Shown here in pieces: positions 17,798 to 34,617 of a stretch of DNA of 64,000 nucleotides; position 1 is the stretch's first letter, and each line of letters begins with the position of its first letter. A program made the position numbers and the translations under genes. This stretch comes from a virus (lineage: Duplodnaviria; Heunggongvirae; Uroviricota; Caudoviricetes), in the IMG/VR virus record IMGVR_UViG_3300029861_000002; one strand, given 5' to 3'. A model generated the notes under the pieces. That model was given only the letters and a program-made list of their open reading frames with translations. It did no database searches and was not told the DNA's origin.

Positions 17798-17852
17798 TTT
17801 ATATATGATATAATATTTATATAAAGGAAATGAAGAAGGGGAGTTTTAAGAA

Positions 17853-18623: not shown

Positions 18624-18652
18624 AAGAAAAATGGGAGGATAGCATTAAACAT

Positions 18653-18880
18653 TTGTATTACAGCGGTCATAAAGTTAAATTAAGCTTCTTGGCTTTTTGT
18701 TATTTTCGATGGGATAGAATTTTCTCCAGATTTACCGAAAACAGAAAAGACCAAAGAGATACTTTAATTTGGGTACTGCAAGATTGTCAAAGGGACATTG
18801 AGATATTAAAAGAAAAATCAGAACGCCAAATCCAAGACGCATTGGAGCAGCAAAGAAAAATTTTTGAGAGATGGGAGTGA
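18653..18880 (+). CDS. hypothetical protein
   Basis: 75-aa ORF. Start uncertain. Confidence 0.4.
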   Translation: MYYSGHKVKLSFLAFCYFRWDRIFSRFTENRKDQRDTLIWVLQDCQRDIEILKEKSERQIQDALEQQRKIFERWE

Positions 18881-18884
18881 TTAA

Positions 18885-19682
18885 ATGACAATTTTTGAAC
18901 GAGTAAGAGAGCATTATGATGAAGCTCTTACCCATTTCACAGAAGACCAAGTTGTGGGAATCTTTCTTCAAGGTTCTCAAAACTATGGACTCGATACTCC
19001 GCAATCGGATGTAGATACAAAGCTAATTGTAGTTCCTAGCTTTAAAGACATTGCTATGAACCGCAAGCCAGTTAGCACAACTCATATTCGAGCAAACGAT
19101 GAACATACTGACTGGAAAGATATTCGCCTCTACATTCAGACATTCCGCAAACAAAACTTAAACTTCCTCGAAATTCTTTACACAGACTTTGCTATTGTTA
19201 ATCCCATCTATGAAAAACAGTGGAATCGTTTAATTCAAGCAAGAGAAAGGATTACTCATTTTAATCCTTATCGTTCTGTTCAAAGTATGAAGGGTATTGC
19301 GCTAGAAAAATATCACGCTATGGAGCATGAATACCCAAGTAAAGTTGAAGTTTTAAAGAAGTATGGTTACGATCCTAAACAACTCCATCATCTTGTTAGA
19401 GTAGAAGATTATCTTGGAAGATATATCGCAGGAGAAAGTTATGAGAGTTGTTTAAACCCAGGCCCATTCAAACAAGAGCTAATAGAAATTAAGATGGGCA
19501 AATATTCTCTCGCGGAAGCTAGGATTGTGGCAGATAAATCTAAGGCTCATGTGGAAGAAATGGCAGAGTATGCGTATTCTATCTATCCAAATAAAGAAGA
19601 CGCGGAAGTCAATGCTCTTCTTGATGATGTGCAATATGAGATTATGAAATTAGCGGTTGAAAGGGAGTTGAATAAAAGATGA
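18885..19682 (+). CDS. nucleotidyltransferase (Pol-beta superfamily minimal NTase fold)
   Basis: GSQNYGLDTPQSDVDT matches the G[SG]x9-13Dx[DE] nucleotidyltransferase motif. 265 aa. Confidence 0.65.
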   Translation: MTIFERVREHYDEALTHFTEDQVVGIFLQGSQNYGLDTPQSDVDTKLIVVPSFKDIAMNRKPVSTTHIRANDEHTDWKDIRLYIQTFRKQNLNFLEILYTDFAIVNPIYEKQWNRLIQARERITHFNPYRSVQSMKGIALEKYHAMEHEYPSKVEVLKKYGYDPKQLHHLVRVEDYLGRYIAGESYESCLNPGPFKQELIEIKMGKYSLAEARIVADKSKAHVEEMAEYAYSIYPNKEDAEVNALLDDVQYEIMKLAVERELNKR

Positions 19683-20548
19683 TTAAGAATTGGCTCGTGA
19701 CTGGAGATACACATGGGCGAGTTATGGAGCGCCTTTCGCAGATAGATAGCGATAAGTATATTCCTGACGAAACGGCTATCATTATTCTCGGTGATGCCGG
19801 AATCAATTACTTCTTGAATAAGACCGATGTAAAAAACAAGAAGTCTATTCAGGCAAGTGGCTACACTATTTATTGCGTCAGAGGAAACCATGAAATGCGG
19901 CCGGAGCGTCTTCCCGCAATTAACTGTGCCTTTGACTTTGAAGTTCAAGGTATAGTGCGCTATGAAGAGGATTATCCTCATATTAAATATCTTGTCAATA
20001 ATCAAATCTACAAATTTGGTGATTACTCTGCTCTTGTTATTGAAGGAGCCTATTCAGTAGATAAATATTATCGCCTTGCTGGAACTGGATTAACTGGGGA
20101 AGAGGATTATGAATTAGTCGCCAAGAAAGCTGGATGGTTTAAGGACGAACAGTTATCCGCGGAAGAAATGAATTTTGCAACATTGGTAATCAAAAATAAG
20201 CAAGTTGATTTTGTTCTTAGCCATACTTGTCCGCTCTCTTGGCAACCAGTAGATCTTTTCTTATCTGCCGTAAACCAGTCAACAGTAGATAATACGATGG
20301 AAAAATGGTTAGACTCTTTAAAGAATGAGTTTCAGTGGAAAATTTGGTTGTTCGGCCATTTCCATAAAGATAGAATTGAACGACCCCACGTAGAGCAGTT
20401 TTTCCAAGATATTCAGCCTATTGATTCTATCTATAATAGATGGTATGGAGAAAAAACTATTCACAAAGAATGGTACTTAGAAAAGTCGCCTAATTACTAT
20501 TTAAAGGGTGATACGCCTTTCGATGAAGATTTAAAGGAGGAGCTTTAA
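19679..20548 (+). CDS. calcineurin-like metallophosphoesterase
   Basis: Motifs GDTHG, GDAG and GNHE. 289 aa. Confidence 0.7.
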   Translation: MIKNWLVTGDTHGRVMERLSQIDSDKYIPDETAIIILGDAGINYFLNKTDVKNKKSIQASGYTIYCVRGNHEMRPERLPAINCAFDFEVQGIVRYEEDYPHIKYLVNNQIYKFGDYSALVIEGAYSVDKYYRLAGTGLTGEEDYELVAKKAGWFKDEQLSAEEMNFATLVIKNKQVDFVLSHTCPLSWQPVDLFLSAVNQSTVDNTMEKWLDSLKNEFQWKIWLFGHFHKDRIERPHVEQFFQDIQPIDSIYNRWYGEKTIHKEWYLEKSPNYYLKGDTPFDEDLKEEL

Positions 20549-20559
20549 GCCCTCCTTTA

Positions 20560-20618
20560 TTTTTTTATTTTTTTATGATATAATATATATAGAAAGTTAA
20601 GGAAAGGAAGTAATTTAT
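20560..20618 (+). promoter_or_regulatory. conserved promoter/leader motif copy
   Basis: TTTATGATATAATATATATAGAAAGTTAAGGAAAGGAAG. Confidence 0.6.
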
Positions 20619-20789
20619 ATGATGCCTTATGTATGCGAAGGAACAATCGTAAAGACTCTTAATGGTCGAGAGGGCAAGGTAGTTGGTGTTGATCGAAAGA
20701 ATAGGATCGCAGTTATCTACAATGGAAAAACTTCCTATACCGAGAAACTTGAAAATATCAGAGTTGTTTCTTATAAGGAGGTAGAGTGA
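20619..20789 (+). CDS. small hypothetical protein
   Basis: 56 aa. Conserved promoter/leader upstream (TGATATAATATATATAGAAAGTTAAGGAAAGGAAG). Confidence 0.4.
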   Translation: MMPYVCEGTIVKTLNGREGKVVGVDRKNRIAVIYNGKTSYTEKLENIRVVSYKEVE

Positions 20790-21070
20790 ATATGCCTGGT
20801 CGTAGAACTTCTAAGTTTACGAAGGATCAAAACGCCCTTCTTCAGGGAGAGGTTATGATCATTCTTGCGGAAAGTGAAGAGGCATTAACTATTGAAGAAA
20901 TTCAAGCAAGATCAATTACTCTTACAGGACTTTCTACTCAAAAGATTGCAAGACTACTCGGCCATTTGATTGAAATGGGAAACGTAACAAAAGCAAAGAG
21001 TAAGAGTCTTGGTAAGATGGTATATAAATCATTGGCCGTGATGAGGAGGCAGGGATATGATGTTTATTGA
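20786..21070 (+). CDS. hypothetical protein (possible winged-helix)
   Basis: 94 aa. Start overlaps the previous stop (ATGA-type coupling). Confidence 0.45.
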   Translation: MNMPGRRTSKFTKDQNALLQGEVMIILAESEEALTIEEIQARSITLTGLSTQKIARLLGHLIEMGNVTKAKSKSLGKMVYKSLAVMRRQGYDVY

Positions 21071-21310
21071 GGACACCTTTGATGTTATCTTCACTATTTA
21101 TCTAGGTAATTAGGTTATTGAGTAGTGGAGAATGCAAGCTCCTAGACCTTTTATTGAAGCTCAATTCATTTAGATAGTTCAGCAAATTGCTTCTTAGAAG
21201 TAGCCTATGAAAGTAGTAGTATCAAGAGAAGAAGTGATTTGGGACTAGTTTGAGCAAAAACATAAAGTTCTTCCAATAACTATGGAATTTCAAAACTATA
21301 AGGAGTAAAG

Positions 21311-21649
21311 ATGGAATTATACAACTTATATGCAGGCTTGAGCGGTGGATTTGGTGGTTACCAATATCATTGTACTGAGGAGTATAATTCTAAAGATGAA
21401 GCTCTGGAAGCCGCGAGGCAACTTGCTATTGAAGAATATCAATCTTATGAAGGTTGTCATGGGCTAACTTCTGAAGAAGATATTCTTGAGCAATATTTGA
21501 AAGACAATGGGTTATCACATGATGAACTAACTGAATCTGACTATGAAGAAATCTGGGATATGTATATGGAAGAAGTTGAAGGTTGGTTGTCCTATTTAGC
21601 AACTACCATAGAAGAAGATCCTGATCATGATAGATATTATGAATGGTAA
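21311..21649 (+). CDS. acidic hypothetical protein
   Basis: 112 aa with RBS AAGGAG. Asp/Glu-rich. Confidence 0.5.
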   Translation: MELYNLYAGLSGGFGGYQYHCTEEYNSKDEALEAARQLAIEEYQSYEGCHGLTSEEDILEQYLKDNGLSHDELTESDYEEIWDMYMEEVEGWLSYLATTIEEDPDHDRYYEW

Positions 21650-21666
21650 GAAAGGAGTACGATAAC

Positions 21667-21930
21667 ATGGGTGGTTATTACGGAGATATGGATACTTTTA
21701 TGATAGATGAAGGTATCCTGAATAAACTGGTCACATTCGGTTCATATGATGGCTTGCTCTTGACAGGAACAATCAAGTATGTTATCAAAATGGATAGTGA
21801 TTTCCTTATTGGAATTATCCCTGATCGAACTCCAGAAGATGTAGATGCTAAGCAAAAGGAAGATACAGGTATAGCTTTTGTACCTCTTTCTCGACTAATT
21901 AATTTAGATATATTTAAGATTTTTATGTAA
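21667..21930 (+). CDS. hypothetical protein
   Basis: 87 aa with RBS AAGGAG. Confidence 0.45.
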   Translation: MGGYYGDMDTFMIDEGILNKLVTFGSYDGLLLTGTIKYVIKMDSDFLIGIIPDRTPEDVDAKQKEDTGIAFVPLSRLINLDIFKIFM

Positions 21931-21946
21931 TGAGGAGGCATGAAAG

Positions 21947-23221
21947 ATGGCTTATTTTGGTCTGGTGACTAAGATTCAGAACGTGCGGAAAGACCCGAAT
22001 TCCGATCGGCTATATCTAGCGGATTGCTTTAATGAAGGAGTAATCGTAGGCCCTGACATGAAGACCGGAGATCTGGTGCTCTATCTGCCCACCGATGGAG
22101 AAATTGAACGCTGGTTTGGTAATGAATTCTGCCTTTTCCGCAAGAATGAAGATGGATCTATTCAGGGCGGATACCTTGAAAATAATGGCCATGTGCGGGC
22201 CATTAAGCTCCGCGGCAATCAGTCTTCTGGTATTGTCATTGCTCTTGATCGAGTCTATGAAAAGTTTGGTGACCAGCATTGGAGTAATGGAGATAAAGTA
22301 ACTACTATCAATGACAAGGAGTTTTGCCGTAAGTATATTCCTAAGCGAAAGAGCGATTCTACTTATGGAGCAAAGACTTCTTACAAAGGGCGCAAAGCTG
22401 AGGGGATTACTTATCCTGAGTTCTCTATGCATACTGATACCGAGCAGCTTGCATATAACTTTGATAAGTTCCGTGAGGGTGATGAACTAAATATGACCCT
22501 CAAGATGCATGGCACCTCTCAGCGCTCTATGAATACTTATGCAGAGCTTCCTAATGGTTTCTTCCGTCGCCTTTTCCATATGAAGAAGCGCACTAAGCAG
22601 GCTTATGTTCTTGGAACTCGCCGTTGTGTGGTGACTGAAAACTCTCAGGGGTACTATGGGAACGATCAGTTCCGTATGCCTCATCATGAAGCTTTAAAGC
22701 CCTATCTTGAGCCTGGGATGGAAGTTTTTTACGAAGTAGTAGGCTACTATGGGCCAAATGAAGAGAATACTATTATGCCTATTGGTGATAATACTAAAAT
22801 CAATGATAAGGCTTTTGTAAAGCAGTTTGGTAAACGGTCTATCTTCTCTTATGGCTGTGAACCCGGTCAGAGTAAAATGTATATCTATCGCATCACCTCT
22901 GAAAATGGAGAGAGAGAGTGGACTCCTGACGAAATTACTGCCTGGTGCGATTGGCATGGTTTTAATCGCGTTCCTGTAATTGAGAACTTCAAGTTTACTA
23001 CCGTTGAGGATCTTCAGGAGCGTATCAATAAATACTTCGAAGATCTCGCAGATCCGATCGGCCGCACCCATGTTAAGGAAGGAGTAGTTATCCGAATTGT
23101 AAATCGGCGTACTTTTACTGCTTTCAAGTCAAAAACCTTTGAATTTAAAGTTATTTCTGGGATTGCTACAGAGAGCGTAAATTCTAGTAATATTTCTGAA
23201 GATATTCTTGCGGAAATGTAA
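21947..23221 (+). CDS. putative ATP-dependent RNA ligase (Rnl2-like nucleotidyltransferase motif I)
   Basis: 424 aa. The segment TLKMHGTSQRS resembles the Rnl2/ligase motif I (KxHGxN/S lysine-adenylate site). RBS GAGGAGG. The family assignment is tentative. Confidence 0.45.
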   Translation: MAYFGLVTKIQNVRKDPNSDRLYLADCFNEGVIVGPDMKTGDLVLYLPTDGEIERWFGNEFCLFRKNEDGSIQGGYLENNGHVRAIKLRGNQSSGIVIALDRVYEKFGDQHWSNGDKVTTINDKEFCRKYIPKRKSDSTYGAKTSYKGRKAEGITYPEFSMHTDTEQLAYNFDKFREGDELNMTLKMHGTSQRSMNTYAELPNGFFRRLFHMKKRTKQAYVLGTRRCVVTENSQGYYGNDQFRMPHHEALKPYLEPGMEVFYEVVGYYGPNEENTIMPIGDNTKINDKAFVKQFGKRSIFSYGCEPGQSKMYIYRITSENGEREWTPDEITAWCDWHGFNRVPVIENFKFTTVEDLQERINKYFEDLADPIGRTHVKEGVVIRIVNRRTFTAFKSKTFEFKVISGIATESVNSSNISEDILAEM

Positions 23222-23317
23222 TTTACCCACAAATTTAAAAAAAAAGAGGGTAAAATGATTAAATCATCTCCTTTTATTTCTTATATAATGTAGACAATAA
23301 AAAGGAGATGATTTTTA

Positions 23318-24181
23318 TGCCAAAAGCATTAGATTTAACTGGTCAAAAGTTTGGAAAATTAACCGCTTTACGTAGATTACCAAATCAAGGTCGTAGAACT
23401 ATTTGGGAATGTTAGTGTGACTGTGGTAATATAATCCCCGTCCGCGCAGAAAATTTAAGAAGTGGGCATACTACCTCATGCGGATGTAAAAAGAGAGAGC
23501 CATCTAAAAAATTTGTTGATTTAACAGGACAGAAATTTGGGGAATGGACAGTATTATCAAAAGCAGAGAAAGAGAGCTACTGGCTATGTGAATGTTCTTG
23601 TGGAGTAAAAAGAGAAGTATATGCCCCATCATTAAAGAGTGGAAAATCTCTTTCTTGTGGACATTTATTTAAAAATTAGATTCGTAATCCTATTATAGGA
23701 AGCAGATATGGAAATTTAATTGTGTTAGAACAATTTAAAGAAAATGATACTTGGTGTTGTAAATGCTAGTGCGACTGTGGAAATATCACGATTGTAAAAA
23801 GACAAAATTTAACTTCTGGGAATACCTAGTCTTGTGGTTGTATAATCTCAAAAGGAGAAGCTAGAATAAAACGGATCTTGCAAGAAGCAAATATACCCTT
23901 TATTTCTCAATGGACGCCACAGGATTATCCAAATCAAAAATGTAAATTTGATTTTTACATAGACAATAAGTATGTAGTAGAGTTCGATGGTCCATAGCAT
24001 GAAGGTCAAGTAAGTGGATATTATACTAAAGAAAAAGTAGACGCTTTAATGCAAAGAGACTAGGAAAAAAATAAATATTGCCTATCTCACAATATTCCTT
24101 TATATCGTATTCCATACGAATATAGAGATACAATAACCTTAGAGCTGCTAACGGATGAAAAATTTCTCGTTAAATCTTGAA
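23318..24181 (+). CDS. homing-endonuclease-like protein with repeated Zn-ribbon modules and DUF559/Vsr-like nuclease C-terminus (7 in-frame TAG)
   Basis: RBS AAAGGAGA. Repeated LTGQKFG(K/E)LT...W(E/L)C[x]CDCGN...SG.T.SCGC modules, where x is encoded by TAG three times. The C-terminus FDFYIDNKYVVEFDGP[TAG]HEG matches the DUF559 restriction-endonuclease-like fold (FDGxQH). A single 288-codon frame to TGA at 24179. No ORF of 60 aa or more appears in the six-frame track here because of the TAGs. Confidence 0.65.
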
Positions 24182-24263
24182 TTAAAGGAGAGTCATATCT
24201 CTCCTTTAATTTTTTAATAAAATATGATATAATATTTATATAAAGGAAAAGGAGTATAACAAA

Positions 24264-24803
24264 ATGTATAGAAAGATACTTATAATTGTTGATGCTCAAA
24301 ATGATTTCATCACTAGGGCGCTAGGTACAAAGGAGGCGGATGCCGCAGTTCCCAATATCGTTGATCTAATTAAACGATTCTGTTGGGAGGAAATTATTTG
24401 TACCATGGATACCCATGATGATGATTACTTTGATACTTTAGAAGGAAAGAGACTTCCTATTAAACATTGTATTAAGGCAAGCGTGGGCTGGTGTATGGAT
24501 TCCAGAGTTGTGATTGCGTTGAATAACAAGTTTAATTATTATGAAAAAGACACCTTTGGCAGTACCGATATGGTTAATGAGGTATATGATTCTCTAAAGA
24601 TGAAGAATCCAGAGGAAGTAGAAATTCATATCTGCGGATTTTGTACCGATATCTGCGTTATGGCTAACGCGGTTATGCTTCGTGCAGCGTTGCCAAATAC
24701 TAGAATTATCGTTCATTCTAGTGCGTGCGCAGGAGTAACTCCAGAATCGCATGAGGCAGCGCTAACTATTTTCAAAGCTCAACAGATTGATGTGGAGGAT
24801 TAA
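24264..24803 (+). CDS. isochorismatase-family cysteine hydrolase (nicotinamidase PncA-like)
   Basis: 179 aa. The N-terminal ILIIVDAQNDF is the family signature, and a Cys nucleophile lies in the ICGFCTDICV region. Confidence 0.7.
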   Translation: MYRKILIIVDAQNDFITRALGTKEADAAVPNIVDLIKRFCWEEIICTMDTHDDDYFDTLEGKRLPIKHCIKASVGWCMDSRVVIALNNKFNYYEKDTFGSTDMVNEVYDSLKMKNPEEVEIHICGFCTDICVMANAVMLRAALPNTRIIVHSSACAGVTPESHEAALTIFKAQQIDVED

Positions 24804-24806
24804 GAA

Positions 24807-25619
24807 ATGATTAGTCTGATTAACACGCGCAGTCATTGGACAGATGTAATTGAGCAAAATCATTTTCCCGATGGAACGCTGCATATTAATATGCCGCCCA
24901 ATTATTTTGATTACGATACCGTTCTTTGGGAGTATGAGAACGATGCAGAACTGTTCACTCTAATTTGCGTAAAGGGACACTTTAAAGATTGTCCCTTGAG
25001 GCTCGATATGCCATATATTCCTCATGCAAGAATGGATAGAGTGCAAGAACTTGAAGATGTGTTTACCCTTAAATATTTCTGTCAAGTAATCAATGGTCTT
25101 CACTTCGATAAAGTCATTGTAAGAGATGCTCATTCTAATGTAGCATTAGCTCTGCTCGATAGGGTAATTGATCTTACTCCTATTGGAGAAATCAAAGAGG
25201 CTATCAAACTTTTTGAGCATTATGAAAAAGAAACTCCCGTTCTATTTTTCCCGGACGAGGGAGCTATGAAGAGATATTCCACTCCAGCAATTAATCTTCC
25301 ATACGCCTTTGGAATTAAAAAGAGGGATTGGTCTACTGGAAAAATTCTTGGTCTACAACTAATGAATGGTGAGTTGGTTAAAGATAAGGGTGTTCTAATT
25401 GTAGACGATATTTGCTCTCGGGGAGGAACTTTCTATCACGCGGCAAACGCTCTAAAAGAAGCAGGAGCAAAAAATATTTATCTTTACGTCACTCATGCAG
25501 AACATACTATGGTTGAAGGTGATATGTATAATCAGGATATTGTAAAGAAAATCTTTACCACTGATAGCATCTTTAAGCCTGAGTGGGATACTAGAGGAAA
25601 GGTAGAAATTGTTCGATGA
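24807..25619 (+). CDS. ribose-phosphate pyrophosphokinase (Prs)-like phosphoribosyltransferase, a candidate NARP1 Adps
   Basis: PRPP-binding motif VLIVDDICSRGGT with a Prs-like N-terminal half. 270 aa, adjacent to the NAMPT-like gene. Confidence 0.55.
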   Translation: MISLINTRSHWTDVIEQNHFPDGTLHINMPPNYFDYDTVLWEYENDAELFTLICVKGHFKDCPLRLDMPYIPHARMDRVQELEDVFTLKYFCQVINGLHFDKVIVRDAHSNVALALLDRVIDLTPIGEIKEAIKLFEHYEKETPVLFFPDEGAMKRYSTPAINLPYAFGIKKRDWSTGKILGLQLMNGELVKDKGVLIVDDICSRGGTFYHAANALKEAGAKNIYLYVTHAEHTMVEGDMYNQDIVKKIFTTDSIFKPEWDTRGKVEIVR

Positions 25620-26065
25620 CTATTGAAAAGCTTCAAGCACTAAAAATTGCAGCTCTTAAAAATGGAGACGTAAATACAAAGAGAGTGCTTTCTGACATGA
25701 TTGATTCGTGTCAGAAAGCAACAATTACTCCGAAGGGAAGAGTGGAACTAACAGAGCAGTTAATTGATGAAACTCTTATTAAGTATCAAAAAACTGTGCA
25801 AGAAATGATTGATACCTGCCCCGCTAACTATTCTGAGAAGTTGCATCAATATCAAGAGGATATGAAAATCGTAAAAATGTGTGCTCCACAGCTGCTTACA
25901 GATAAAACAGAGATTGAAACAAGAGTAAGAGAAATCGCAGCTGCCGCAGGTATAGATCTCCTTAAAGCAAACCGAGGTGCGATTATGAAGTATGTTTCTG
26001 CGGCACTCAAAGGTAAAGCTGATATGAAAATTGTAAGCACTGTTGTTGGGGAGATTCTAAAATGA
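25616..26065 (+). CDS. GatB/YqeY-domain protein
   Basis: 149 aa. The all-helical pattern LKIAALKNGD..RVLSDMIDSCQKA resembles the YqeY/GatB C-terminal domain family. Confidence 0.5.
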   Translation: MTIEKLQALKIAALKNGDVNTKRVLSDMIDSCQKATITPKGRVELTEQLIDETLIKYQKTVQEMIDTCPANYSEKLHQYQEDMKIVKMCAPQLLTDKTEIETRVREIAAAAGIDLLKANRGAIMKYVSAALKGKADMKIVSTVVGEILK

Positions 26066-26430
26066 GTTTGACTTTAGAGCAGACGTTGGCTTCTATTTTA
26101 CAGTCTCTTGCTAACTTTTTTGGAGTAACCACTCAAACTATTATGGAAAATGCTCCAATGTGGTTGGCTAAATATGGCTGGTACGTAACCGTTAAAGATT
26201 TAGGATTTAACATTTTTGTTGGGGTTTTTATAGGTGCTATTATTTCTAGTATTATATGGTTTATACTATATCTAATAATTGAAGTCGATTTTAAAAAATG
26301 GCACCTGCACATTCTTACATTCGTGCCCATACTTTCAGTCATTATTACAGTTTGTGTTCCAATTATTACTTGCATTATTGCGCCAGAATACGTAGGAATT
26401 GAAGCATTATTCAGCTTGCTTCAAAATTGA
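26062..26430 (+). CDS. membrane protein
   Basis: 122 aa with about 3 TM helices. A terminator follows. Confidence 0.5.
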   Translation: MSLTLEQTLASILQSLANFFGVTTQTIMENAPMWLAKYGWYVTVKDLGFNIFVGVFIGAIISSIIWFILYLIIEVDFKKWHLHILTFVPILSVIITVCVPIITCIIAPEYVGIEALFSLLQN

Positions 26431-26513
26431 TAAAAAGCTCTCTTATGAGAGCTTTTTATTTTTATAAAAATATATGTTATAATATAATAAAGAAATAAGG
26501 AAAGGAAGATTTT

Positions 26514-28103
26514 ATGAGTTTCTTTGATGTAGCACCTATGTTTGCGGCAGACTATTATAAGATTGGTCATGCGGTTAAAATGCAGCCTGCCGACGCAAAG
26601 ATGGTGTATTCTACTTGGACTGCTCGCAGCAATAAATATCATAAAGACTGCGCCAAAACTATGGTGTTTGGCCATCAATATACCATCCAGCGACTGCTTA
26701 ATTACTGGCAGGCAGAATTTTTTAATCAGCCCATTGATCTGCTTGAAAGCGAGTGGAACAGGGTAATCAAGGATACTTTCCATCCTGGCTATGCAGATTT
26801 CAGCAAGTTTAGGAAACTTTATGAGCTTGGCTATCTTCCCATTTCAATTATGGGAGTTCCCGAAGGTACACTTCTTCCTATCGGTATTCCAGATCATGTT
26901 ATCTTTTCTACTGATCCTGAATTTGCATGGCTTCCGCAGTTTATTGAAGATCAGTGGAGTGCAAATAACTGGCTTCCTTCTACTTCTGCCACGACAGCCT
27001 TCTATCGACGTAAGCTAATCGAGCCTTATGTTAAGATGACCTGTGACGATATGTCTGCTCTCCCTCATATGTGCGGTGACTTCTCTCTCCGCGGTCACAC
27101 TTCACTTGAAGCGGGCTATATCTCTGGCGCCGCGCACGCTTTGTCTTTTGATAGGACTGCGACCATTGGTTCTAATCTTCTTTTGGAGAAATATTATGGA
27201 GCAGATTTAGAGAATAATCCTCCTCTAATGGGAACTCCATCTCTGGAGCACTCTGTTGTTGAACAGGGTGTAGCATGGAAAAGAGCGCAGATGTTCAATG
27301 GTGAGCTAGAAGCCGAGGAGCAAGCTCTACTCAATACTTGCCTCTCTGAAAATTGGGAAGTTAATCTTATTGCTGAGATGCTCTTCCTGCGCCATCTTCT
27401 TATCAATATTCAGCCTACTGGGACAATGACTTATGTAGCAGATACATATGATTATTGGGGTGTAGTATCTAAAATTGTTCCTGCATTGAGAGACATTATC
27501 GAGCAGCGGGATGGATGCCTTTCCATCCGCCCCGATAGCGGAGATCCAGTAAAAATCATTTGCGGGGACACAAGTTTTGCTGTTGATCCTGACTCCCCGG
27601 AGGGTAAAGGAACTCTTGTCAGTCTCTTTGATACTTTTGGCGGCAACCTTAATAGAAAGGGTTATTTTGAGCTTCCCTCTTGTATTCGTGTTATTTATGG
27701 CGATGCGATCACTCCCGAGATCACTGAAAAAATATGTAATTGGTGTGTCAATAATTCTATTTCAGTATCAAATATCTGTTTTGGAATTGGCGCATATACT
27801 TATCAATATGTAACTCGTGACACTAGAGGCTATGCAATTAAGGCTACCGATTGTATTCTTGGAGAAGATGAAATCCAAATCTACAAGATGCCAAAAACCG
27901 ATCCTGGGAAAAAATCTCCTCGTGGATGCGTAGCGGTTGTTAAAGACTCAGAGGGCCAATATAGGCTTGTTGAAAATCTTACTCTTAAAGAAGCCATCGA
28001 ATATAAGGATAATGTAATGAAATTCAAAGTAAAAGATGGTGTTTTTGTACGCGAAAACGAGGAAGATTTTTATACAATTAAGAATCGACTGATGGGAGAG
28101 TAA
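26514..28103 (+). CDS. nicotinamide phosphoribosyltransferase-family protein (NAMPT/NadV-like, or NARP1 Namat)
   Basis: 529 aa with promoter/leader upstream. The length and N-terminal FDVAPMFAADYYKIGH.. pattern are typical of the NAMPT family. Sits between Prs-like and NadE. Confidence 0.6.
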   Translation: MSFFDVAPMFAADYYKIGHAVKMQPADAKMVYSTWTARSNKYHKDCAKTMVFGHQYTIQRLLNYWQAEFFNQPIDLLESEWNRVIKDTFHPGYADFSKFRKLYELGYLPISIMGVPEGTLLPIGIPDHVIFSTDPEFAWLPQFIEDQWSANNWLPSTSATTAFYRRKLIEPYVKMTCDDMSALPHMCGDFSLRGHTSLEAGYISGAAHALSFDRTATIGSNLLLEKYYGADLENNPPLMGTPSLEHSVVEQGVAWKRAQMFNGELEAEEQALLNTCLSENWEVNLIAEMLFLRHLLINIQPTGTMTYVADTYDYWGVVSKIVPALRDIIEQRDGCLSIRPDSGDPVKIICGDTSFAVDPDSPEGKGTLVSLFDTFGGNLNRKGYFELPSCIRVIYGDAITPEITEKICNWCVNNSISVSNICFGIGAYTYQYVTRDTRGYAIKATDCILGEDEIQIYKMPKTDPGKKSPRGCVAVVKDSEGQYRLVENLTLKEAIEYKDNVMKFKVKDGVFVRENEEDFYTIKNRLMGE

Positions 28104-28108
28104 ATCTT

Positions 28109-28831
28109 ATGACAATAAGAGTTCAAAGAATCATTAACTGGATTAAAAAATATTTTATCGACAACGGCCCGGACTGCAAAGCTGTTATTGGTATTTCTGG
28201 AGGAAAAGATTCTACTGTCGCTGCCGCACTGCTTTGTAAAGCTATTGGGCCAGAAAATGTAATTGCAGTTCAAATGCCACAAGGGTATCAATCAGACATT
28301 GATATTTCAAATGAAGTTATTGAGTATCTAGGCATTAAAGAACATTATAATATCAACATTGGAGAGGCTTGCAAAGCAACTTTTTTCTCCCTACCCTCTG
28401 ATATTCGTAATCTTCCTCAAGTTGTAAGTAACGTTCCAGCAAGAGAAAGAATGAATATTCTTTATGCCATCGCGGCTGCTCGACATGGTAGAGTTGCAAA
28501 CACTTGTAATAGAAGTGAAAATTATGTTGGTTATTCAACCAAATTTGGTGATTCCGCGGGAGATTTTTCAATTCTGCACAATTACACAGTAACAGAAGTT
28601 AAAGAGATTGGTTTAGAACTTGGTCTACCGGAGAAATTTATAGAAAAAGTTCCAGAAGATGGATTAACTGGACTCTCAGATGAAGAGAATCTAGGTTTTT
28701 CTTATAAAACTCTTGATAACTTTTTGCTATATCGTATTACTCCTCCGTATGAAGTATATAAAAATATTGAGCAGAGACACAAGAGAAACCTACATAAAAC
28801 AGAGGAAATGCCAATCTGCCCCTTCTTTTAA
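28109..28831 (+). CDS. nadE: NH3-dependent NAD+ synthetase
   Basis: PP-loop GISGGKDSTVAAAL (SGGxDS) and NadE-like length (240 aa). Confidence 0.8.
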   Translation: MTIRVQRIINWIKKYFIDNGPDCKAVIGISGGKDSTVAAALLCKAIGPENVIAVQMPQGYQSDIDISNEVIEYLGIKEHYNINIGEACKATFFSLPSDIRNLPQVVSNVPARERMNILYAIAAARHGRVANTCNRSENYVGYSTKFGDSAGDFSILHNYTVTEVKEIGLELGLPEKFIEKVPEDGLTGLSDEENLGFSYKTLDNFLLYRITPPYEVYKNIEQRHKRNLHKTEEMPICPFF

Positions 28832-28894
28832 ATAAAGAGAGCTTTACGCTCTCTTTATTTTTATATTTTATTATGGTATAATATAATAAAGGAA

Positions 28895-29629
28895 GTGATT
28901 AAAGTGAGCGTATACGCTATTAGTGATCTTCATGGTATGTTATGTCTTTATCAAGAGGTAAAGAAATTTTTAAAACCAGAAGATAAAGTTTATTGCCTGG
29001 GCGATTGCGGCGATCGGGGACCTGATCCTTGGGAAACCATTAAAGCAGTTGCCGCAGATCCGCAATTTATCTACATCAAGGGTAATCACGAAGATATGCT
29101 TGTCAATGCAATGAGAGAATATGCGAAGTATGAATGTTTCGACAGAGATTATGCTTTGCTTTGTTTTAATGGAGGGAAAGACACCTTTGAAGGTTGGATA
29201 AGTGATGGTGCGAACCCTGATTGGTGTAATTATTTAAGTAAGTTACCTACTTATATGGAATACTGCAATAAAGACGATGTTAAAATAGCTCTTTGTCATG
29301 CAGGGCTTACAGCAGGTTCTAATCCAAATACAAGAGATTTAATCTGGGATAGAGAACATATTTGGGATACTTACTATGAAAATAATACTATCTGTGTTCA
29401 TGGACATACTCCTATCCCCGGTATGATTAGAGGCTATAGAGGAAGTCTAAAAAATTTCTTTGGAGCGAGAGAAGACTCTTATGTTGAGGGTGCTTTTTGG
29501 TACTGCAATGACCATAAGGTAAATATTGATTGTGGCAGTTTCTTTACTGGACAAACCGTTCTCTTAAATCTCGATACCTTTGACGAGCATATTTTTATGG
29601 TTGATATGGAGGATAAACAGTATGAATGA
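28895..29629 (+). CDS. Ser/Thr-phosphatase-like metallophosphoesterase (lambda-PPase/ApaH-like)
   Basis: YAISDLHGM, GDCGDRGPD and GNHE motifs. 244 aa. Confidence 0.7.
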   Translation: MIKVSVYAISDLHGMLCLYQEVKKFLKPEDKVYCLGDCGDRGPDPWETIKAVAADPQFIYIKGNHEDMLVNAMREYAKYECFDRDYALLCFNGGKDTFEGWISDGANPDWCNYLSKLPTYMEYCNKDDVKIALCHAGLTAGSNPNTRDLIWDREHIWDTYYENNTICVHGHTPIPGMIRGYRGSLKNFFGAREDSYVEGAFWYCNDHKVNIDCGSFFTGQTVLLNLDTFDEHIFMVDMEDKQYE

Positions 29630-30467
29630 CCAACTTGGTACTCGTATGAAGGAGTTTTATGAACAGGTACCTAAAACTCGCCTCATGCGCAGAACTCCAG
29701 TAGCAATTAGAATTGATGGAAAAGCATTTCATACCTTCACTAAAGGATTTAAAAAACCATTTGACGAAGTGTTAGTTGAAGCTATGCAAGAAACTACAGA
29801 GTATTTGTGCAGAAATATTCAAGGATGTGTTCTTGGATATACACAAAGTGATGAAATAACTCTAATTCTTGTTGATTACAAGAAATTAAATAGTGAAGCG
29901 TGGTTTGACTACGAAGTTCAAAAGATGTGCTCTGTTGCAGCATCTATGGCGACAATGGCTTTTAATAAAGCTTTTCATCGAGCGATTGAAGCATACGAAG
30001 TTGATTGGAAGTGCTCTCTAACTCCGCAAAGTGTAGAAATCCGACAGAAACATCAAGAATATATGAAAACTTTACGGATGGCAAGCGCAAAAGGTGCTAT
30101 GTTTGATGCACGTGTTTTTAATATCCCAAAAGAAGAGGTAACAAATCTCATTTACTGGCGACAGTTAGATGCCATTCGCAATTCTATTCAAATGGTTGGT
30201 CAAGCAAATTTTTCTCATAGTGAACTTCAGGGTAAGTGCAGTAGTGAAATTTTAGAGATGCTTATTTCCAAAAAGGGGATAGATTGGAATAGTCTACCGA
30301 CCTATTTGAAGAGAGGTTCTTGTTGTATAAAAGACTGCGAAGAAACGGAAAGAGAAGATGGCTCAATTCATTTTAAACACTATTGGTTTATTGACCTTAA
30401 TATTCCTCTATTCAAAGATGAAGGTAGGACTTATATTGAAGAACTAATTCAACCAGTTGAGATTTAA
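29622..30467 (+). CDS. Thg1-like 3'-5' nucleotidyltransferase (tRNA-His guanylyltransferase-like protein)
   Basis: PVAIRIDGKAFHTFTKGF matches the Thg1/TLP motif (RxDGxxFxxFT). The catalytic region YTQSDEITLIL is also present. About 281 aa. Confidence 0.6.
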   Translation: MNDQLGTRMKEFYEQVPKTRLMRRTPVAIRIDGKAFHTFTKGFKKPFDEVLVEAMQETTEYLCRNIQGCVLGYTQSDEITLILVDYKKLNSEAWFDYEVQKMCSVAASMATMAFNKAFHRAIEAYEVDWKCSLTPQSVEIRQKHQEYMKTLRMASAKGAMFDARVFNIPKEEVTNLIYWRQLDAIRNSIQMVGQANFSHSELQGKCSSEILEMLISKKGIDWNSLPTYLKRGSCCIKDCEETEREDGSIHFKHYWFIDLNIPLFKDEGRTYIEELIQPVEI

Positions 30468-30543
30468 AATAAAAATCTTTTGATATTTTATAAAAAATAT
30501 ATTATAATATTTATAGAAAGTTAAATGAATGGAGGAAAGCAGT

Positions 30544-31050
30544 ATGACTATTGAAGTAAAAGTTATGGTCGGTATCCCCGGTAGTGGAAAATCTACTTGG
30601 GCGCATAAAGAAGCTGAGTTGCTTGAAATGGATGGTTTTCATACTGCTATTATCTCCCGTGACGAGATAAGAAAATCTTTCGTTGGTGATGGAAGTTACT
30701 TCGGAAAAGAGAATGATGTATTCGAAGAATTTGTCCGTCAGATTAACGAATGTCTCGAAATCGGAATTGATTACGTCTTTGTTGACGCAACTCATATTTC
30801 CCAAGGATCAAGAGCAAAGCTATTGGGTAGACTGCGGCCGGACGGAAAAACAAGACTTGTCTTCGAAGTTTGCGATTGCGGGATTGATACCTGTATCGCT
30901 CGCAATAGCTTGAGAGAAGGATTTTCTCAAGTCCCAGAGTCCGCAATTAGGAAGATGGCTAGAAACTATAGATCTCCCACTCCCGCAGAATTTGAACTTT
31001 ATAAGTACGGATTTAAAGAAGTAAGAATTAATCATCATGGAATGGAGTGA
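30544..31050 (+). CDS. P-loop polynucleotide 5'-kinase-like protein (T4 Pnk kinase-domain-like)
   Basis: VMVGIPGSGKSTWAHKE is a Walker A motif, followed by ISRDEIRKS, as in the Pnk/AAA_33 kinase family. 168 aa, RBS GGAGGA. Confidence 0.6.
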   Translation: MTIEVKVMVGIPGSGKSTWAHKEAELLEMDGFHTAIISRDEIRKSFVGDGSYFGKENDVFEEFVRQINECLEIGIDYVFVDATHISQGSRAKLLGRLRPDGKTRLVFEVCDCGIDTCIARNSLREGFSQVPESAIRKMARNYRSPTPAEFELYKYGFKEVRINHHGME

Positions 31051-31056
31051 TAAAAC

Positions 31057-31620
31057 ATGATTTTTCTAACTTCAGATTGGCACTTTAATCATTCGAAAGA
31101 GTTTATCTATAAACCTCGCGGATTTGATTCTGCTGAGGAAATGAATAGTGCTCTTGTTGAACGGCACAACTCTCTTGTAACCTCAGAAGATGATGTATAT
31201 ATTCTTGGAGATTTATGTTTAGGTGGGGCAGAAAGCCTTGAGAAAAGCAGAGAACTTATTAGTTCTATGAATGGAAAACTTCATGTGGTTTTTGGAAATC
31301 ATGATACACCTAAACGTCGGCAAATGTATGCAGAGTTGCCGAATGTAGTTGAAACTGCATGGGCGCTTAGTCTTAACTACAAAAAATATCATTTCTATAT
31401 GTCTCATTTTCCAACTTTAACTGGAAATCTTGAAAAAGAGAGTCTCCATGAAATGATGCTTAATCTCTACGGTCATACGCATCAAAAATCTGATTTTTAT
31501 GAGGATAGACCCTATATGTATCATGTAGGAGTTGATTCACATAGCTGTTATCCAGTTTCTCTTGATGCAGTTATTGATGAAATGAAACTAAAGGTAAAGG
31601 AGTGCGTTGATATGCTATGA
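31057..31620 (+). CDS. metallophosphoesterase (candidate 2',3'-phosphatase partner of the kinase)
   Basis: Calcineurin-like motifs DWHFNH, GDLCLGG, GNHD and GHTH. 187 aa, immediately downstream of the kinase. Confidence 0.65.
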   Translation: MIFLTSDWHFNHSKEFIYKPRGFDSAEEMNSALVERHNSLVTSEDDVYILGDLCLGGAESLEKSRELISSMNGKLHVVFGNHDTPKRRQMYAELPNVVETAWALSLNYKKYHFYMSHFPTLTGNLEKESLHEMMLNLYGHTHQKSDFYEDRPYMYHVGVDSHSCYPVSLDAVIDEMKLKVKECVDML

Positions 31621-32393
31621 GCGGTGGTGTCGACGGAGAGGTTCTTACCCAAGGATGGCATCTGGTCTCTCCCACCAAGAAGGTAACTACCTATTCTATC
31701 GGTCTTGAGCAGTCTTATTTGACTTCTGAAGATAAGGGCGATTCTCCTAATGACGAGAGTTTTAACGTACCTACTAGCGATGGCAAAACCGTAAAGGTAA
31801 ACCTTGAGTTCTCTTACCGATTTGATGAAGATCGTGTTGCAGAAACCTTTACTCTATTCAAGGGTAAGGATGGCGAAACCATTAAGGATACCTTCATTAA
31901 GCCTAAGATTGTAGCATGGACTCAGGAAGTTACAGCTAACTATCCTGTAACTGATATTTTTGGCGACCAGCGTACTGCAATCAATGCTGAACTTGACGTT
32001 TATCTGCGTGAAAAGTTTGACCAGTATGGTATCATTATTGATACTGTAAACTTTACTGATATTTCTGTTGATGCTGAAACCGCAGAGGCTATCCAGAAGA
32101 AGGTAAATGCTCAGCAGGAGCTTGAGCTTGCCAATATTGAGGCACAGACTGCAAAGGTTCAGGCTGAGAAGGAAAAGGAAGTCGCTGAGATTCAGGCCGA
32201 GCAGGCGCTAATTCAGGCTCAAGCGCAGGCCGATGCTCTTGAAATTGCGGCGCAGGCCGAAGCTGAGGCAAATGCAAAGATTGCCGCTTCTCTTACTCCT
32301 GAGCTGATTGAGAAGATTAAGTATGAACAGTGGAATGGTCAGATGCCTTCTACTATGGCCGGAACTGATTCTTCTATTTTGATTACTCCCTAA
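31617..32393 (+). CDS. SPFH/band-7 domain protein
   Basis: 258 aa. An SPFH-like core is followed by a long Ala/Glu/Gln-rich coiled-coil tail (QAEKEKEVAEIQAEQALIQAQAQADALEIAAQAEAEANAKIAASL). The N-terminal start is uncertain. Confidence 0.55.
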   Translation: MSGGVDGEVLTQGWHLVSPTKKVTTYSIGLEQSYLTSEDKGDSPNDESFNVPTSDGKTVKVNLEFSYRFDEDRVAETFTLFKGKDGETIKDTFIKPKIVAWTQEVTANYPVTDIFGDQRTAINAELDVYLREKFDQYGIIIDTVNFTDISVDAETAEAIQKKVNAQQELELANIEAQTAKVQAEKEKEVAEIQAEQALIQAQAQADALEIAAQAEAEANAKIAASLTPELIEKIKYEQWNGQMPSTMAGTDSSILITP

Positions 32394-32397
32394 CTTT

Positions 32398-32434
32398 AAC
32401 CCTCCAGATTCTTAATCTGGAGGGTTTCTTTTTA
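32398..32434 (+). terminator. rho-independent terminator
   Basis: AACCCTCCAGATT-ctta-ATCTGGAGGGTT + TCTTTTT. Confidence 0.8.
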
Positions 32435-33315: not shown

Positions 33316-34564
33316 TGAAATTCGATTCTATGATACTTGTTCTTTGTTAAATGCTGGAGAAAGTATATTTGACAAAGAAGAAAAGTTTGTAGTTTCATCA
33401 ATCACTTTTAAAGAGCTTGAAAGAATTAAAACTGCTAGCAATAAAGATCTGGATATAAAGTATTCTGCTCGTTTGTTATTGCATCTGCTTGAAGAACATC
33501 CCGATATGTATGATGTTGTTGTCCATAGATTAGAGTACGAAGAAGCAATTAAAGAGCAATCTCTTGATGTAACAGATGATACAAGAATATTATCAGACGC
33601 TTTTTGGTATAATAATAAAGTTAGAGTAGACGAAACAGTCTTTGTAACAAATGATTTAAGCCTAAAAACGATAGCAAATTTATTCTTTGGTTCCGGAGAA
33701 ATAGAAAGCGTTGAATCAGATAATGATGATTATAGTGGCTATGTAGAAATAAAAGCAGATGATAGTTCATTGGCATCTTTTTATCAAGATCCGAGTTTCA
33801 ACCATTACAATCTTCATATTGGAGAATATTTAATTATTCGAGACCTTGATGGGAAAATTGTTGATATAAGGGTCTGGACAGGAGAAAATCATAGATACCT
33901 TAATTATAACAACTTTGATTCTATTTGGTTTGGTAATATTACACCATATAAAGAGGATGTTTATCAAAAACTTTTATTTGATAGTTTAAGTAATAATAGA
34001 ATTACTTTGATAAAAGGCCCCGCTGGTTCTGGTAAAACAATTATTAGTCTAGCTTATTTGATGTCTAAACTAGACAGAGGAGATTTAGACAGAATTGTCG
34101 TATTCTGTAATACAGTAGCAACAGCAAATAGTGCTAAATTAGGTTATTTACCCGGAACCCGCAATGAAAAGTTACTCGATTCCCAAATTGGAAATCTATT
34201 GATTTCTAAATTTGGCGGTAGAGATGGGGTAGAACAACTTATTGAGACAGATAAGTTAGTCCTTCTACCCATGAGTGATATTAGAGGTTATGACACATCT
34301 GGAATGAAGGCTGGTATCTATATCTCTGAAGCACAAAATCTTGATAGAACACTAATTAAACTCGCTCTCCAAAGAGTTGGCGAAGATTGTGTTTGCATTA
34401 TAGACGGCGATGCTAAAACTCAAGTTGATGATATTCATTTTGCAGGAAGTAACAATGGAATGAAACGTGTTTCTAAAGTTTATAGAGGTCATGATATTTA
34501 CGGAGAAGTTGAACTTCGTAACATTTATAGATCTAGAATTGCGAAAATTGCAGAAGATATTTAA
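33308..34564 (+). CDS. PhoH-like ATPase with N-terminal PIN domain (PhoH2/YlaK-like)
   Basis: The PIN-like N-terminus FYDTCSLL..TNDLSLKT is fused to a PhoH Walker A motif, LIKGPAGSGKT. 418 aa. Confidence 0.8.
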   Translation: MSNEIRFYDTCSLLNAGESIFDKEEKFVVSSITFKELERIKTASNKDLDIKYSARLLLHLLEEHPDMYDVVVHRLEYEEAIKEQSLDVTDDTRILSDAFWYNNKVRVDETVFVTNDLSLKTIANLFFGSGEIESVESDNDDYSGYVEIKADDSSLASFYQDPSFNHYNLHIGEYLIIRDLDGKIVDIRVWTGENHRYLNYNNFDSIWFGNITPYKEDVYQKLLFDSLSNNRITLIKGPAGSGKTIISLAYLMSKLDRGDLDRIVVFCNTVATANSAKLGYLPGTRNEKLLDSQIGNLLISKFGGRDGVEQLIETDKLVLLPMSDIRGYDTSGMKAGIYISEAQNLDRTLIKLALQRVGEDCVCIIDGDAKTQVDDIHFAGSNNGMKRVSKVYRGHDIYGEVELRNIYRSRIAKIAEDI

Positions 34565-34617
34565 GGAAGAGAGCTAAAACTCTCTTCCTTTTTTCATGCG
34601 TAAAAGGAGGGAGTAGA

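Follow-up and report, generated by a model that had tools for sequence, protein, structure and literature searches.

Gene content of the locus

We analyzed a 64,000-nt stretch of DNA (hereafter, the window) from an uncultured phage of the class Caudoviricetes (IMG/VR record IMGVR_UViG_3300029861_000002), focusing on a putative NAD+ module at positions 24264-28831. Pathway 1 for NAD+ reconstitution (NARP1), pairing a homolog of phosphoribosyl pyrophosphate (PRPP) synthetase (Prs), denoted Adps, with a homolog of nicotinamide phosphoribosyltransferase (NAMPT), denoted Namat, is the most widespread known phage way to undo NAD+-depleting immunity (Thoeris, DSR, SIR2-HerA, SEFIR and pAgo). The span encompasses six co-directional genes on the plus strand, with gaps or overlaps of 3, -4, -4, 83 and 5 nt, which include candidate Adps and Namat genes together with genes for a PncA-like nicotinamidase and an NH3-dependent NAD synthetase, NadE (Table 1). 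We slightly favor the view that this span, in a gut phage that recodes TAG, is transcribed as one unit and encodes a nicotinic-acid (deamidated) version of NARP1. Open reading frame (ORF) listing and family scans bore out the identities of the four enzymes as proposed in a first-pass annotation (cysteine hydrolase, Prs-like, NAMPT-like and NadE), as well as their plus-strand coordinates and the two motifs that it quoted, GVLIVDDICSRGGT in the Adps-like protein and SGGKDS in NadE. The four genes are, however, not contiguous, as had been stated: the YqeY-like gene and the gene for a membrane protein with two transmembrane (TM) segments separate the Prs-like from the NAMPT-like gene.

Table 1. 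Features of the module and of its surroundings in the window
Feature	Position	Strand	Properties
PncA-like nicotinamidase	24264-24803	+	179 aa; Pfam Isochorismatase PF00857, E 2e-19
Adps-like ADP-ribose pyrophosphokinase	24807-25619	+	270 aa; Pribosyltran/Pribosyl_synth; PHROG 619 'ribose-phosphate pyrophosphokinase', E 4e-66
YqeY/GatB-like protein	25616-26065	+	149 aa; PF09424, E 3e-10; PHROG 1460, E 9e-13
Small membrane protein	26062-26430	+	122 aa; hydrophobic segments at about residues 49-75 and 81-110 (hydropathy scan)
Variant Namat (predicted)	26514-28103	+	529 aa; NAPRTase family; PHROG 448 'nicotinamide phosphoribosyl transferase', E 9e-136
Insertion in the variant Namat	27261-27377	+	residues 250-288
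NH3-dependent NadE	28109-28831	+	240 aa; NAD_synthase PF02540, E 5e-46; TIGR00552 nadE, E 1e-44
Hairpin AAAGGAGAG...CTCTCCTTT followed by TTTTTT	24183-24216	+	closes the upstream TAG-recoded gene; 5' boundary of the unit; read from the sequence
Promoter-like region and ribosome-binding site	24217-24263	+	'gatataat' (-10-like) and 'aaggaaaaggag' ahead of ATG 24264
Internal sigma-70-like promoter match	26461-26488	+	TTTATA-16-TATAAT; within the 83-nt gap ahead of the Namat gene
Intrinsic-terminator-like hairpin	28830-28860	+	13-bp stem and T-run directly after the NadE stop; 3' boundary of the unit
Frame open only with TAG read-through	23263-24177		6 in-frame TAGs
Frame open only with TAG read-through	34522-36024		12 in-frame TAGs
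Frame open only with TAG read-through	43193-44143		11 in-frame TAGs
Frame open only with TAG read-through	45534-46199		9 in-frame TAGs
Frame open only with TAG read-through	52699-54450		13 in-frame TAGs
RNA-repair-like set flanking the module	19679-20548; 21947-23221; 28895-29629; 29580-30467; 30529-31050; 31057-31620
tRNA gene array	85-15961		26 tRNA genes
Suppressor tRNA	14995-15069		CTA anticodon; ARAGORN label tRNA-Pyl

The block of six genes is a real, conserved feature, because it recurs at 76-94% protein identity on five IMG/VR contigs, in three Logan assemblies and on one contig binned with a metagenome-assembled genome (MAG) of Oscillospiraceae. Megablast of the span against 50,697 GenBank phage records yielded no match, so that only protein-level searches were informative. 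The closest GenBank relative is the uncultured human-gut phage Phass-1 ('Caudoviricetes code 15 clade'), with a 65% identical Namat-like protein; exact copies of the window protein are present on three Logan-assembled contigs, and a 76%-identical module lies on the 149-kb contig binned with the Oscillospiraceae MAG. Clostridia were also proposed as hosts of Phass-1 by its authors (PMC10607447).

The core pair groups with Adps and Namat

Searched against all PDB sequences, the 529-aa protein matched entries 9w5x/9w5w (E 4e-97, 329 bits) and 9ke8 (262 bits), whereas mammalian NAMPT reached about 137 bits and Xanthomonas Nampt about 130 bits. We take 9w5x/9w5w to be structures of the SPbetaL1 Namat, given that the SPbetaL1 gene (L002 in our locus set) matches them in residue numbering and motifs; the predicted fold of the window protein is fixed by this match to solved Namat structures. 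Namat is defined by a Nampt-like catalytic core combined with an adenine 'selectivity clamp' (PMC12774641), and both elements are recognizable in the window protein. The core residues Asp13, Tyr15, Phe190, Arg193, His246, Arg339 and Asp341 (corresponding to D13', Y15', F189, R192, the catalytic His, R306 and D308 of SPbetaL1) are invariant in two alignments. The clamp (SCH) motif, at aa 426-436, reads GAYTYQYVTRD; its positions 3, 5 and 7 are Tyr, and position 2 is Ala in place of Ser. The SCL stacking residue R40 of SPbetaL1 aligns with Lys41, followed by Tyr42 (ARSNKYHKD), in a variable loop where the alignment is less certain; a Lys-type stacking arrangement has been described (PMC12774641).

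The 270-aa partner scored 243 bits against a canonical-Adps hidden Markov model (HMM), which was built solely from the Adps proteins of NARP1 loci with the aspartate-type Namat described below, versus 134 bits for E. coli Prs, and fell under the cut-off of the NCBIfam Prs family (TIGR01251, 90 bits against the required 113). It is 37.5% identical to SPbetaL1 Adps, the catalytic lysine of which, K162, corresponds to K171 (GIKKRDW). Substitution K162A abolished the activity of SPbetaL1 Adps, and this enzyme made no PRPP. The Adps and Namat genes of the window are 895 nt apart in one operon, that is, within the ten genes by which NARP1 loci are recognized. Thus, the placement that the first-pass annotation had suggested as a check sides with Adps/Namat, as judged from the PDB ranking, the clamp motif, the Adps HMM and the K162-K171 correspondence, and at the level of sequence we consider it secure that the pair is of the NARP1 type rather than housekeeping Prs and NadV.

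This assignment bears on the possibility that the module is a phage Preiss-Handler route based on PRPP, with a logic like that of NARP2, in which the 270-aa protein would be a PRPP synthetase, the Namat-like protein would make nicotinic acid mononucleotide (NaMN), host NadD would convert NaMN to nicotinic acid adenine dinucleotide (NaAD) and phage NadE would finish the pathway. The Pfam and NCBIfam names (Prs-like and NAPRTase) speak for such a route, as do the use of PRPP by SPbetaL1 Namat in vitro if ADP-ribose pyrophosphate (ADPR-PP) is absent, the constant availability of host NadD, and a short NadE that resembles Francisella NadE as closely as any other. However, only ADPR-PP requires the adenine-stacking residues of the clamp, and the whole family of window-like Namats, hereafter variant Namats, has conserved them (pattern GI/VG[AS][YF]T[YF]Q[YF]xTRD), whereas the PRPP-using Nampt of Xanthomonas phage X1 has GMGGGLLQKVNRD at the clamp position, while keeping GTDT. 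Furthermore, the 270-aa partner groups with Adps and not with Prs, and SPbetaL1 Adps yielded no PRPP; the related bacterial operons are linked to NrtR, for which ADP-ribose is the effector; related phages insert an ADP-ribose-processing NADAR gene into the module; and phages running the Preiss-Handler pathway carry a PncB-type NAPRT and nicotinamide mononucleotide adenylyltransferase (NMNAT). We therefore regard a PRPP-based route as quite improbable; the conservation of the adenine clamp argues that the donor would be ADPR-PP rather than PRPP.

The nicotinamide pocket of the variant Namat is remodeled

The nicotinamide pocket of SPbetaL1 Namat is formed by F189, R192, D215, A242, R306, D13' and Y15' (PMC12774641). 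Five of these seven residues are identical in the window protein; the two exceptions are D215, which is Ala216 there, and A242, which is Ser243. The alignment around the Asp215 site is ungapped and well anchored (SFDRTATIG in the window, SFTGTDTIP in SPbetaL1); the window protein lacks both the Asp215 with which NARP1 Namat recognizes nicotinamide and the Ala242 of the same pocket. Column comparison of variant and canonical proteins singled out as the sharpest discriminators (SPbetaL1 numbering) H187, replaced by G/S, G213, replaced by R/K/V/N, D215, replaced by A/S, and A242, replaced by S, along with S239 and V304; the corresponding pocket of the window Namat comprises Gly188, Arg214, Ala216 and Ser243. 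Positions H187, G213 and A242 are equivalent to H191, G217 and A244 of human NAMPT, which are known nicotinamide-tunnel residues (PMC4919578).

The D215 position is equivalent to D219 of human NAMPT. In SPbetaL1 Namat, D215A lowers NAD+ synthesis from nicotinamide about 8-fold (PMC12774641); in human NAMPT, D219A leads to loss of activity and D219S switches the substrate affinity (PMC4919578); and in human NAPRT, a Ser at the equivalent position directs specificity to nicotinate (PMC4442680). Exactly Ser is found at this position in some variant lineages (L019 and L184). Of the full-length relatives in databases, 119 in number and as little as 43% identical, every one keeps the Ala and Ser of the remodeled pocket. 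Among the 150 best representatives of 50%-identity clusters, sites 187/215/242 read H-D/E-A in 132 and G/S-A/S-S in 13, so that the two patterns together account for 145 of the 148 scorable sequences (3 were mixed and 2 gapped).

The window Namat also contains an insertion of about 39 aa right after the catalytic-His motif EHSVV, an insertion that the Phass group shares. Neither SPbetaL1 Namat nor the Clostridium proteins of 489 aa have it, so that it is lineage-specific rather than tied to the pocket switch. Many members of the wider family (P0134, P0136, P0139, P0151 and P0154 among them) are 790-1114 aa long, roughly double the usual size, as if Namat/Nampt were fused to a further domain; one example of the Ala/Ser type is P0139, with 792 aa and a match that begins at residue 308.

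PncA and NadE accompany the remodeled pocket

To relate the pocket to gene neighborhoods, we collected 101 phage loci with ±7-kb flanks from two IMG/VR scans and GenBank records and scored the flanks with PncA, Adps and NadE HMMs. The residue at the D215 position is acidic in 86 loci (Asp in 78, Glu in 8), none of which had PncA or NadE nearby, whereas all 15 loci with a non-acidic residue (14 Ala, 1 Ser) encompassed PncA, NadE and Adps. The non-acidic loci belong to five lineages with a mutual identity of only 33-44% and different gene orders, namely, the window group, the Phass group, L019 (a 386-kb contig, Ser-type), L044 (order Adps-Namat-NadE-PncA, with a fully canonical clamp) and L100 (MT835544), where an Adps-Namat(Ala)-NadE-PncA module was reached from the NadE side. 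Protein look-up of distant relatives added three metagenomic loci with the same four genes: L196, in which an RNA ligase is interposed, and L197 and L198, where a NADAR-domain gene (8621-9499) is located between Namat and NadE (order PncA-Adps-Namat-NADAR-NadE).

The NADAR domain of the inserted gene is ADP-ribose-related; L197/L198 represent a 47%-identical relative, in which the module adjoins a phage integrase and a CCA-adding-enzyme-like gene. Separately, the Glu-type phage Namats (L066, L073, L078, L085, L087, L091, L095 and L096) combine GSETIP with a clamp ending in YKSRD or YASRD; Adps is encoded downstream rather than upstream of Namat in at least 6 of these 8 loci, and PncA/NadE in 0 of 8.

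In addition, 80 loci from bacterial and archaeal genomes were scored for PncA, Adps and NadE within 7 kb. The 55 Ala/Ser-type loci, which come from numerous Clostridium species, from MAGs of Oscillospiraceae and Ruminococcus and from a few MAGs of candidate phyla or archaea that may be viral contigs, carried PncA in 51 cases, Adps in 50 and NadE in 30, whereas in the 25 Asp-type loci, mostly from Paenibacillus, PncA and NadE were both absent (0/25 each). Across all 181 phage and bacterial loci, PncA or NadE was found within 7 kb of 0 of 111 acidic-type Namats. In Clostridium tunisiense (L121, 4698-9220), the order NrtR-Adps-PncA-Namat(Ala)-NadE lies in an ordinary chromosomal setting, whereas Paenibacillus loci L151-L168 have NrtR-Adps-Namat of the Asp type. 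The NrtR-linked Clostridium arrangement suggests a housekeeping pathway for recycling of ADP-ribose and niacin.

The operon with NrtR (Nudix and winged helix-turn-helix domains) followed by Adps, PncA, variant Namat and NadE is widespread in Clostridium; besides L121, loci L115, L132, L163 and L171 exemplify the NrtR-linked arrangements of Clostridium and Paenibacillus. Apparent 'NMNAT' matches beside bacterial Namat genes proved to stem from NrtR, namely from its Nudix domain, and not from an adenylyltransferase. For C. acetobutylicum, Rodionov et al. 2008 (PMC2330246) give the order nrtR-pncA-pncB-nadD-nadE.

An independent route to the module was a survey that started from NadE, which is rare in phages (46 records). 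Among the twelve NadE regions fetched, one is the L100 module (MT835544), those of phages G and Phosso and of locus L111 are classical Preiss-Handler clusters, that of Xanthomonas phage X1 combines Nampt, NMNAT and NadE, and cyanophage NadE genes are embedded within sugar-modification clusters. Four short gut-phage contigs (L101-L104; MT835946, MT836475, MT836279 and MT835800) encode NadE homologs 35-46% identical to the window NadE, with no Namat, Adps or PncA in the available flanks (the upstream flank of L101 being almost nil); because of these contigs, NadE alone is not diagnostic of the module.

The covariation is difficult to reconcile with a canonical NARP1 accompanied by unrelated helpers, in which Namat would make NAD+ from nicotinamide and ADPR-PP while PncA and NadE boost the host Preiss-Handler pathway (PncB and NadD) in parallel. 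To be sure, clamp, catalytic core and Adps partner all conform to the canonical type, the D215A mutant of SPbetaL1 Namat keeps some activity, and known NARP1 operons gain accessory genes, such as the Macro phosphatase Adpp or RyDEP. However, PncA would then destroy the substrate of Namat inside the same operon, and such a scheme explains neither the restriction of PncA/NadE to non-acidic Namats (0/111, versus 15/15 phage loci and 51/55 bacterial loci for PncA) nor the fixation of Ala/Ser216 and Ser243 over more than 119 relatives; moreover, the D219A mutation kills human NAMPT. We deem this scheme unlikely. The first-pass description of a locus that fits the NARP1 architecture holds for the Adps/Namat core pair, but not for nicotinamide recognition by Asp215, which is replaced by Ala216; we therefore prefer to read the module as a separate variant that would run through nicotinic acid and NaAD. 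Nicotinamidase and NadE, described there as extra salvage enzymes, are not incidental, in that both co-vary with the loss of the nicotinamide-binding Asp in Namat.

A candidate deamidated pathway

The best PDB relatives of the PncA-like protein include the pyrazinamidase/nicotinamidase of Pyrococcus horikoshii (1im5, E 5e-10), and the alignment with 1im5 shows conservation of Asp10, Lys95 and Cys131, which we take to be the catalytic triad, and of Asp49, His51 and His68, presumably the metal site. The Phass-1 ortholog of this protein is annotated 'nicotinamidase', and the Phass-1 NadE is labeled 'hypothetical'. The window NadE scored 152 bits against TIGR00552 (cut-off 64), contains the PP-loop GISGGKDS, has the length of NH3-type enzymes without a glutaminase domain, and matched the NH3-dependent NadE structures 3fiu and 2e18 (both E ~4e-30). 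Within the window, phmmer with three phage NMNAT/NadD seeds gave no NadD/NMNAT match, none of the six frames contains an (H/T)xGH motif, and the NAPRTs of phage G and Phosso detected no PncB-type NAPRT.

We propose that the four enzymes act in series. The PncA-like nicotinamidase would turn nicotinamide, released when host NADase effectors cut NAD+, into nicotinic acid and NH3; Adps would use ATP to pyrophosphorylate ADP-ribose, yielding ADPR-PP and AMP; the variant Namat would couple nicotinic acid to ADPR-PP, producing NaAD and pyrophosphate and bypassing PncB and NadD; and NadE would amidate NaAD to NAD+ with ATP, re-using the ammonia from the PncA reaction. Adps and Namat are placed in the slot between nicotinic acid and NaAD because the first and last enzymes are the same as in Preiss-Handler clusters whereas PncB and NadD are replaced. 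Given that many Clostridium species have a chromosomal, NrtR-linked operon for these four enzymes, the phage module probably represents a captured or shared Clostridia-type pathway for ADP-ribose/niacin recycling, which would keep NAD+ up during infection. Whether the window, its gut-phage relatives and the NrtR-linked Clostridium operons all encode a previously undescribed four-enzyme deamidated NARP1, with nicotinate plus ADPR-PP to NaAD as the key step, is in our judgment evenly balanced, and the same even weight is given to the corresponding proposal that proteins with the Gly/Ala(Ser)/Ser pocket in place of His/Asp/Ala form a Namat subfamily with a new reaction. Why a phage would take the nicotinic-acid route is a matter of speculation: hosts might quickly deamidate nicotinamide, the charged base might be trapped in the cell, or the NaAD pool might be no substrate for NADases.

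Several considerations weigh against the proposed pathway. The substrate specificity of the variant Namat is deduced from two to five pocket residues and gene neighborhoods. According to reviews of human NAPRT structure, strict nicotinate specificity needs determinants beyond Ser214, and Ala, unlike Ser, gives the carboxylate no hydrogen bond, so that repulsion is removed but recognition is not added. For NadE, the top PDB match is a tie between the P. horikoshii and Francisella enzymes, and Francisella NadE prefers NaMN; given this tie, NaAD can only be considered the presumptive substrate. The neighborhood test spans ±7 kb, and within this distance NadE is absent from 25 of the 55 bacterial variant loci. 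Moreover, the variant lineages may have one origin, in which case the locus counts overstate independence. Finally, the role against NAD+-depleting defenses is postulated by analogy with tested NARP1 operons and from genomic context, and the NrtR-linked chromosomal homologs show that the pathway can be plain housekeeping.

On the question of origin, a neighbor-joining tree of all columns recovered the variant Namats as monophyletic with bootstrap 54/100, whereas after removal of the ten switching columns they formed an unresolved basal grade (6/60); we thus claim neither a single nor multiple origins. A function of NadE as a Francisella-type nicotinamide mononucleotide synthetase was set aside as less likely, given that no NMNAT was found in the window and PncA would be pointless.

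Genomic context of the module

The window contains 26 tRNA genes, among them a suppressor tRNA with a CTA anticodon that matches tRNA-Sup-CTA of Phass-1, which implies that late in infection TAG codes for an amino acid. Five frames in the window are open only with TAG read-through (Table 1). One such recoded gene fills the 1 kb just upstream of the module that seemed to be free of genes, with repeated W-x-C-(TAG)-C-D-C-G motifs. None of the six module genes contains an in-frame TAG, and the module with its neighbors (~15000-32400) is almost TAG-free. These neighbors encode an RNA ligase (PF09414), three calcineurin-type metallophosphoesterases, a Thg1-like 3'-5' nucleotidyltransferase and an AAA_33/KTI12-like kinase, plausibly a tRNA-repair counter-measure. 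A TAG-free module among tRNA and RNA-repair genes is as expected for early, host-takeover functions. The RNA-repair-like set is conserved together with the NAD+ module in L003-L007 and L193-L195.

This context has to be considered along with the possibility that the locus, whatever its chemistry, is a general auxiliary metabolic operon, raising NAD+ for replication or recycling ADP-ribose from phage ADP-ribosyltransferases or RNA repair, rather than a dedicated counter-defense. The RNA-repair genes next to the module (RNA ligase, Thg1-like protein, kinase and phosphoesterases) are compatible with such a role, the NrtR-regulated Clostridium homologs have ordinary genes for transport and acetyltransferases as neighbors, and no host or defense system has been linked to this uncultured phage. 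Yet an ADP-ribose pathway has substrate only during NAD+ cleavage, which in infected cells is chiefly due to defense NADases (Osterman et al.), every tested NARP1 operon counters NAD+-depleting systems, and a TAG-free early block with host-takeover functions fits counter-defense. On balance, we find a purely metabolic operon rather unlikely.

With regard to expression, the promoter-like region ahead of the first gene amounts to consensus resemblance and is missing from the two-hexamer matches of the promoter scan, and the number of sigma-70-like matches in the region does not exceed the shuffled expectation, which makes the internal match ahead of Namat weak. As to the accessory genes, the YqeY-like gene is kept in L003-L007, L113 and L193-L195 and is missing from the Phass-1, L019, L044 and L100 modules. 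The 122-aa membrane protein, which has no Pfam, NCBIfam or PHROG match, shows 66-68% identity across L003-L007. The YqeY/GatB-like and 2-TM genes between Adps and Namat are seen only in the window lineage; Phass-1 has instead an unrelated 139-aa ORF between Namat and NadE.

Comparison with known NAD+ reconstitution systems

Our full-text literature search retrieved no NARP1/Namat paper that deals with nicotinamidase, NadE, NaAD or nicotinic acid, although prior mention is possible because most subscription journals and the supplements of Osterman et al. lay outside its scope; the Phass-1 paper (PMC10607447) does not discuss the module genes. If the proposed pathway is correct, it would include a new enzymatic reaction catalyzed by a new subfamily, with the signature SF-x-x-[TS]-[AS]-T plus P-S-x-E-H, with the help of which hundreds of gut-phage and Clostridia proteins now called 'nicotinamide/nicotinate phosphoribosyltransferases' could be re-annotated. 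The pathway would also explain why the phage genes nadE and pncA, which are rare, cluster with prs- and nadV-like genes, and would provide a physiological role for the NrtR-controlled adps-pncA-namat-nadE operons of Clostridium. More generally, recycling of ADP-ribose would be joined to the niacin branch of NAD+ metabolism, bypassing PncB and NadD, counter-defense of the NARP type would reach hosts with nicotinic acid as the pyridine currency, and in the arms race over NAD+ the availability of nicotinamide versus nicotinic acid, its pyridine side, would matter beside the ADP-ribose side (already shown by aRES and NARP1-AP).

The module resembles NARP1 (Osterman et al. 2024; PMC12774641) in being a phage-borne pair of nearby Adps and Namat genes, with 37-40% identity to the SPbetaL1 proteins, and in keeping the Adps Lys, the His/Arg/Asp core of Namat, the aromatic SCH positions 3 and 7 and the SCL Lys-Tyr. 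It differs from NARP1 in the pocket (D215 to Ala, A242 to Ser, H187G, G213R), in the 39-aa insertion, in the tie to nicotinamidase and NH3-dependent NadE, in the two extra small genes, and in the predicted product of the transferase, NaAD instead of NAD+. Extension of a NARP1 core by operon-encoded accessory enzymes is shared with NARP1-AP and RyDEP-NARP1, in which a Macro phosphatase, Adpp, acts against aRES and a glycosidase, RyDEP, against cyclic ADP-ribose signals; these enzymes supply ADP-ribose, from ADPR-1''-P or cyclic ADP-ribose, and Namat is unchanged. In contrast, the accessory enzymes of the window would act on the pyridine side, the core transferase is altered, and the span encodes no Macro or RyR-domain protein.

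With the Preiss-Handler pathway, the module shares PncA as the first and NadE as the last enzyme, the logic of deamidation followed by reamidation and, in Clostridia, also NrtR. In Bacillus phage G and Sinorhizobium phage Phosso, PncA and NadE are accompanied by NMNAT/NadD and a PncB-type NAPRT, whereas in the window these two steps are replaced by Adps and Namat, so that the ribose-phosphate-adenylate part would come from recycled ADP-ribose rather than from PRPP and ATP. NARP2 (Nampt and Nmnat, as in Vibrio phage KVP40) likewise includes an enzyme of the Nampt superfamily in a phage NAD+ module, but the 64-kb window, which covers part of the genome, has no detectable Nmnat, and the clamp is of the Namat type rather than GMGGGLLQKVNRD. 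Finally, chromosomal Adps-Namat pairs beside NrtR are known as bacterial NARP1 homologs, that is, pfAdps/pfNamat of Paenibacillus foliorum (PMC12774641) and the NrtR-regulated 'prs-nadV' operons (Rodionov et al. 2008). These are of the Asp type and lack PncA and NadE, whereas the Clostridium and Oscillospiraceae operons related to the window module are of the Ala type and carry PncA, with or without NadE.

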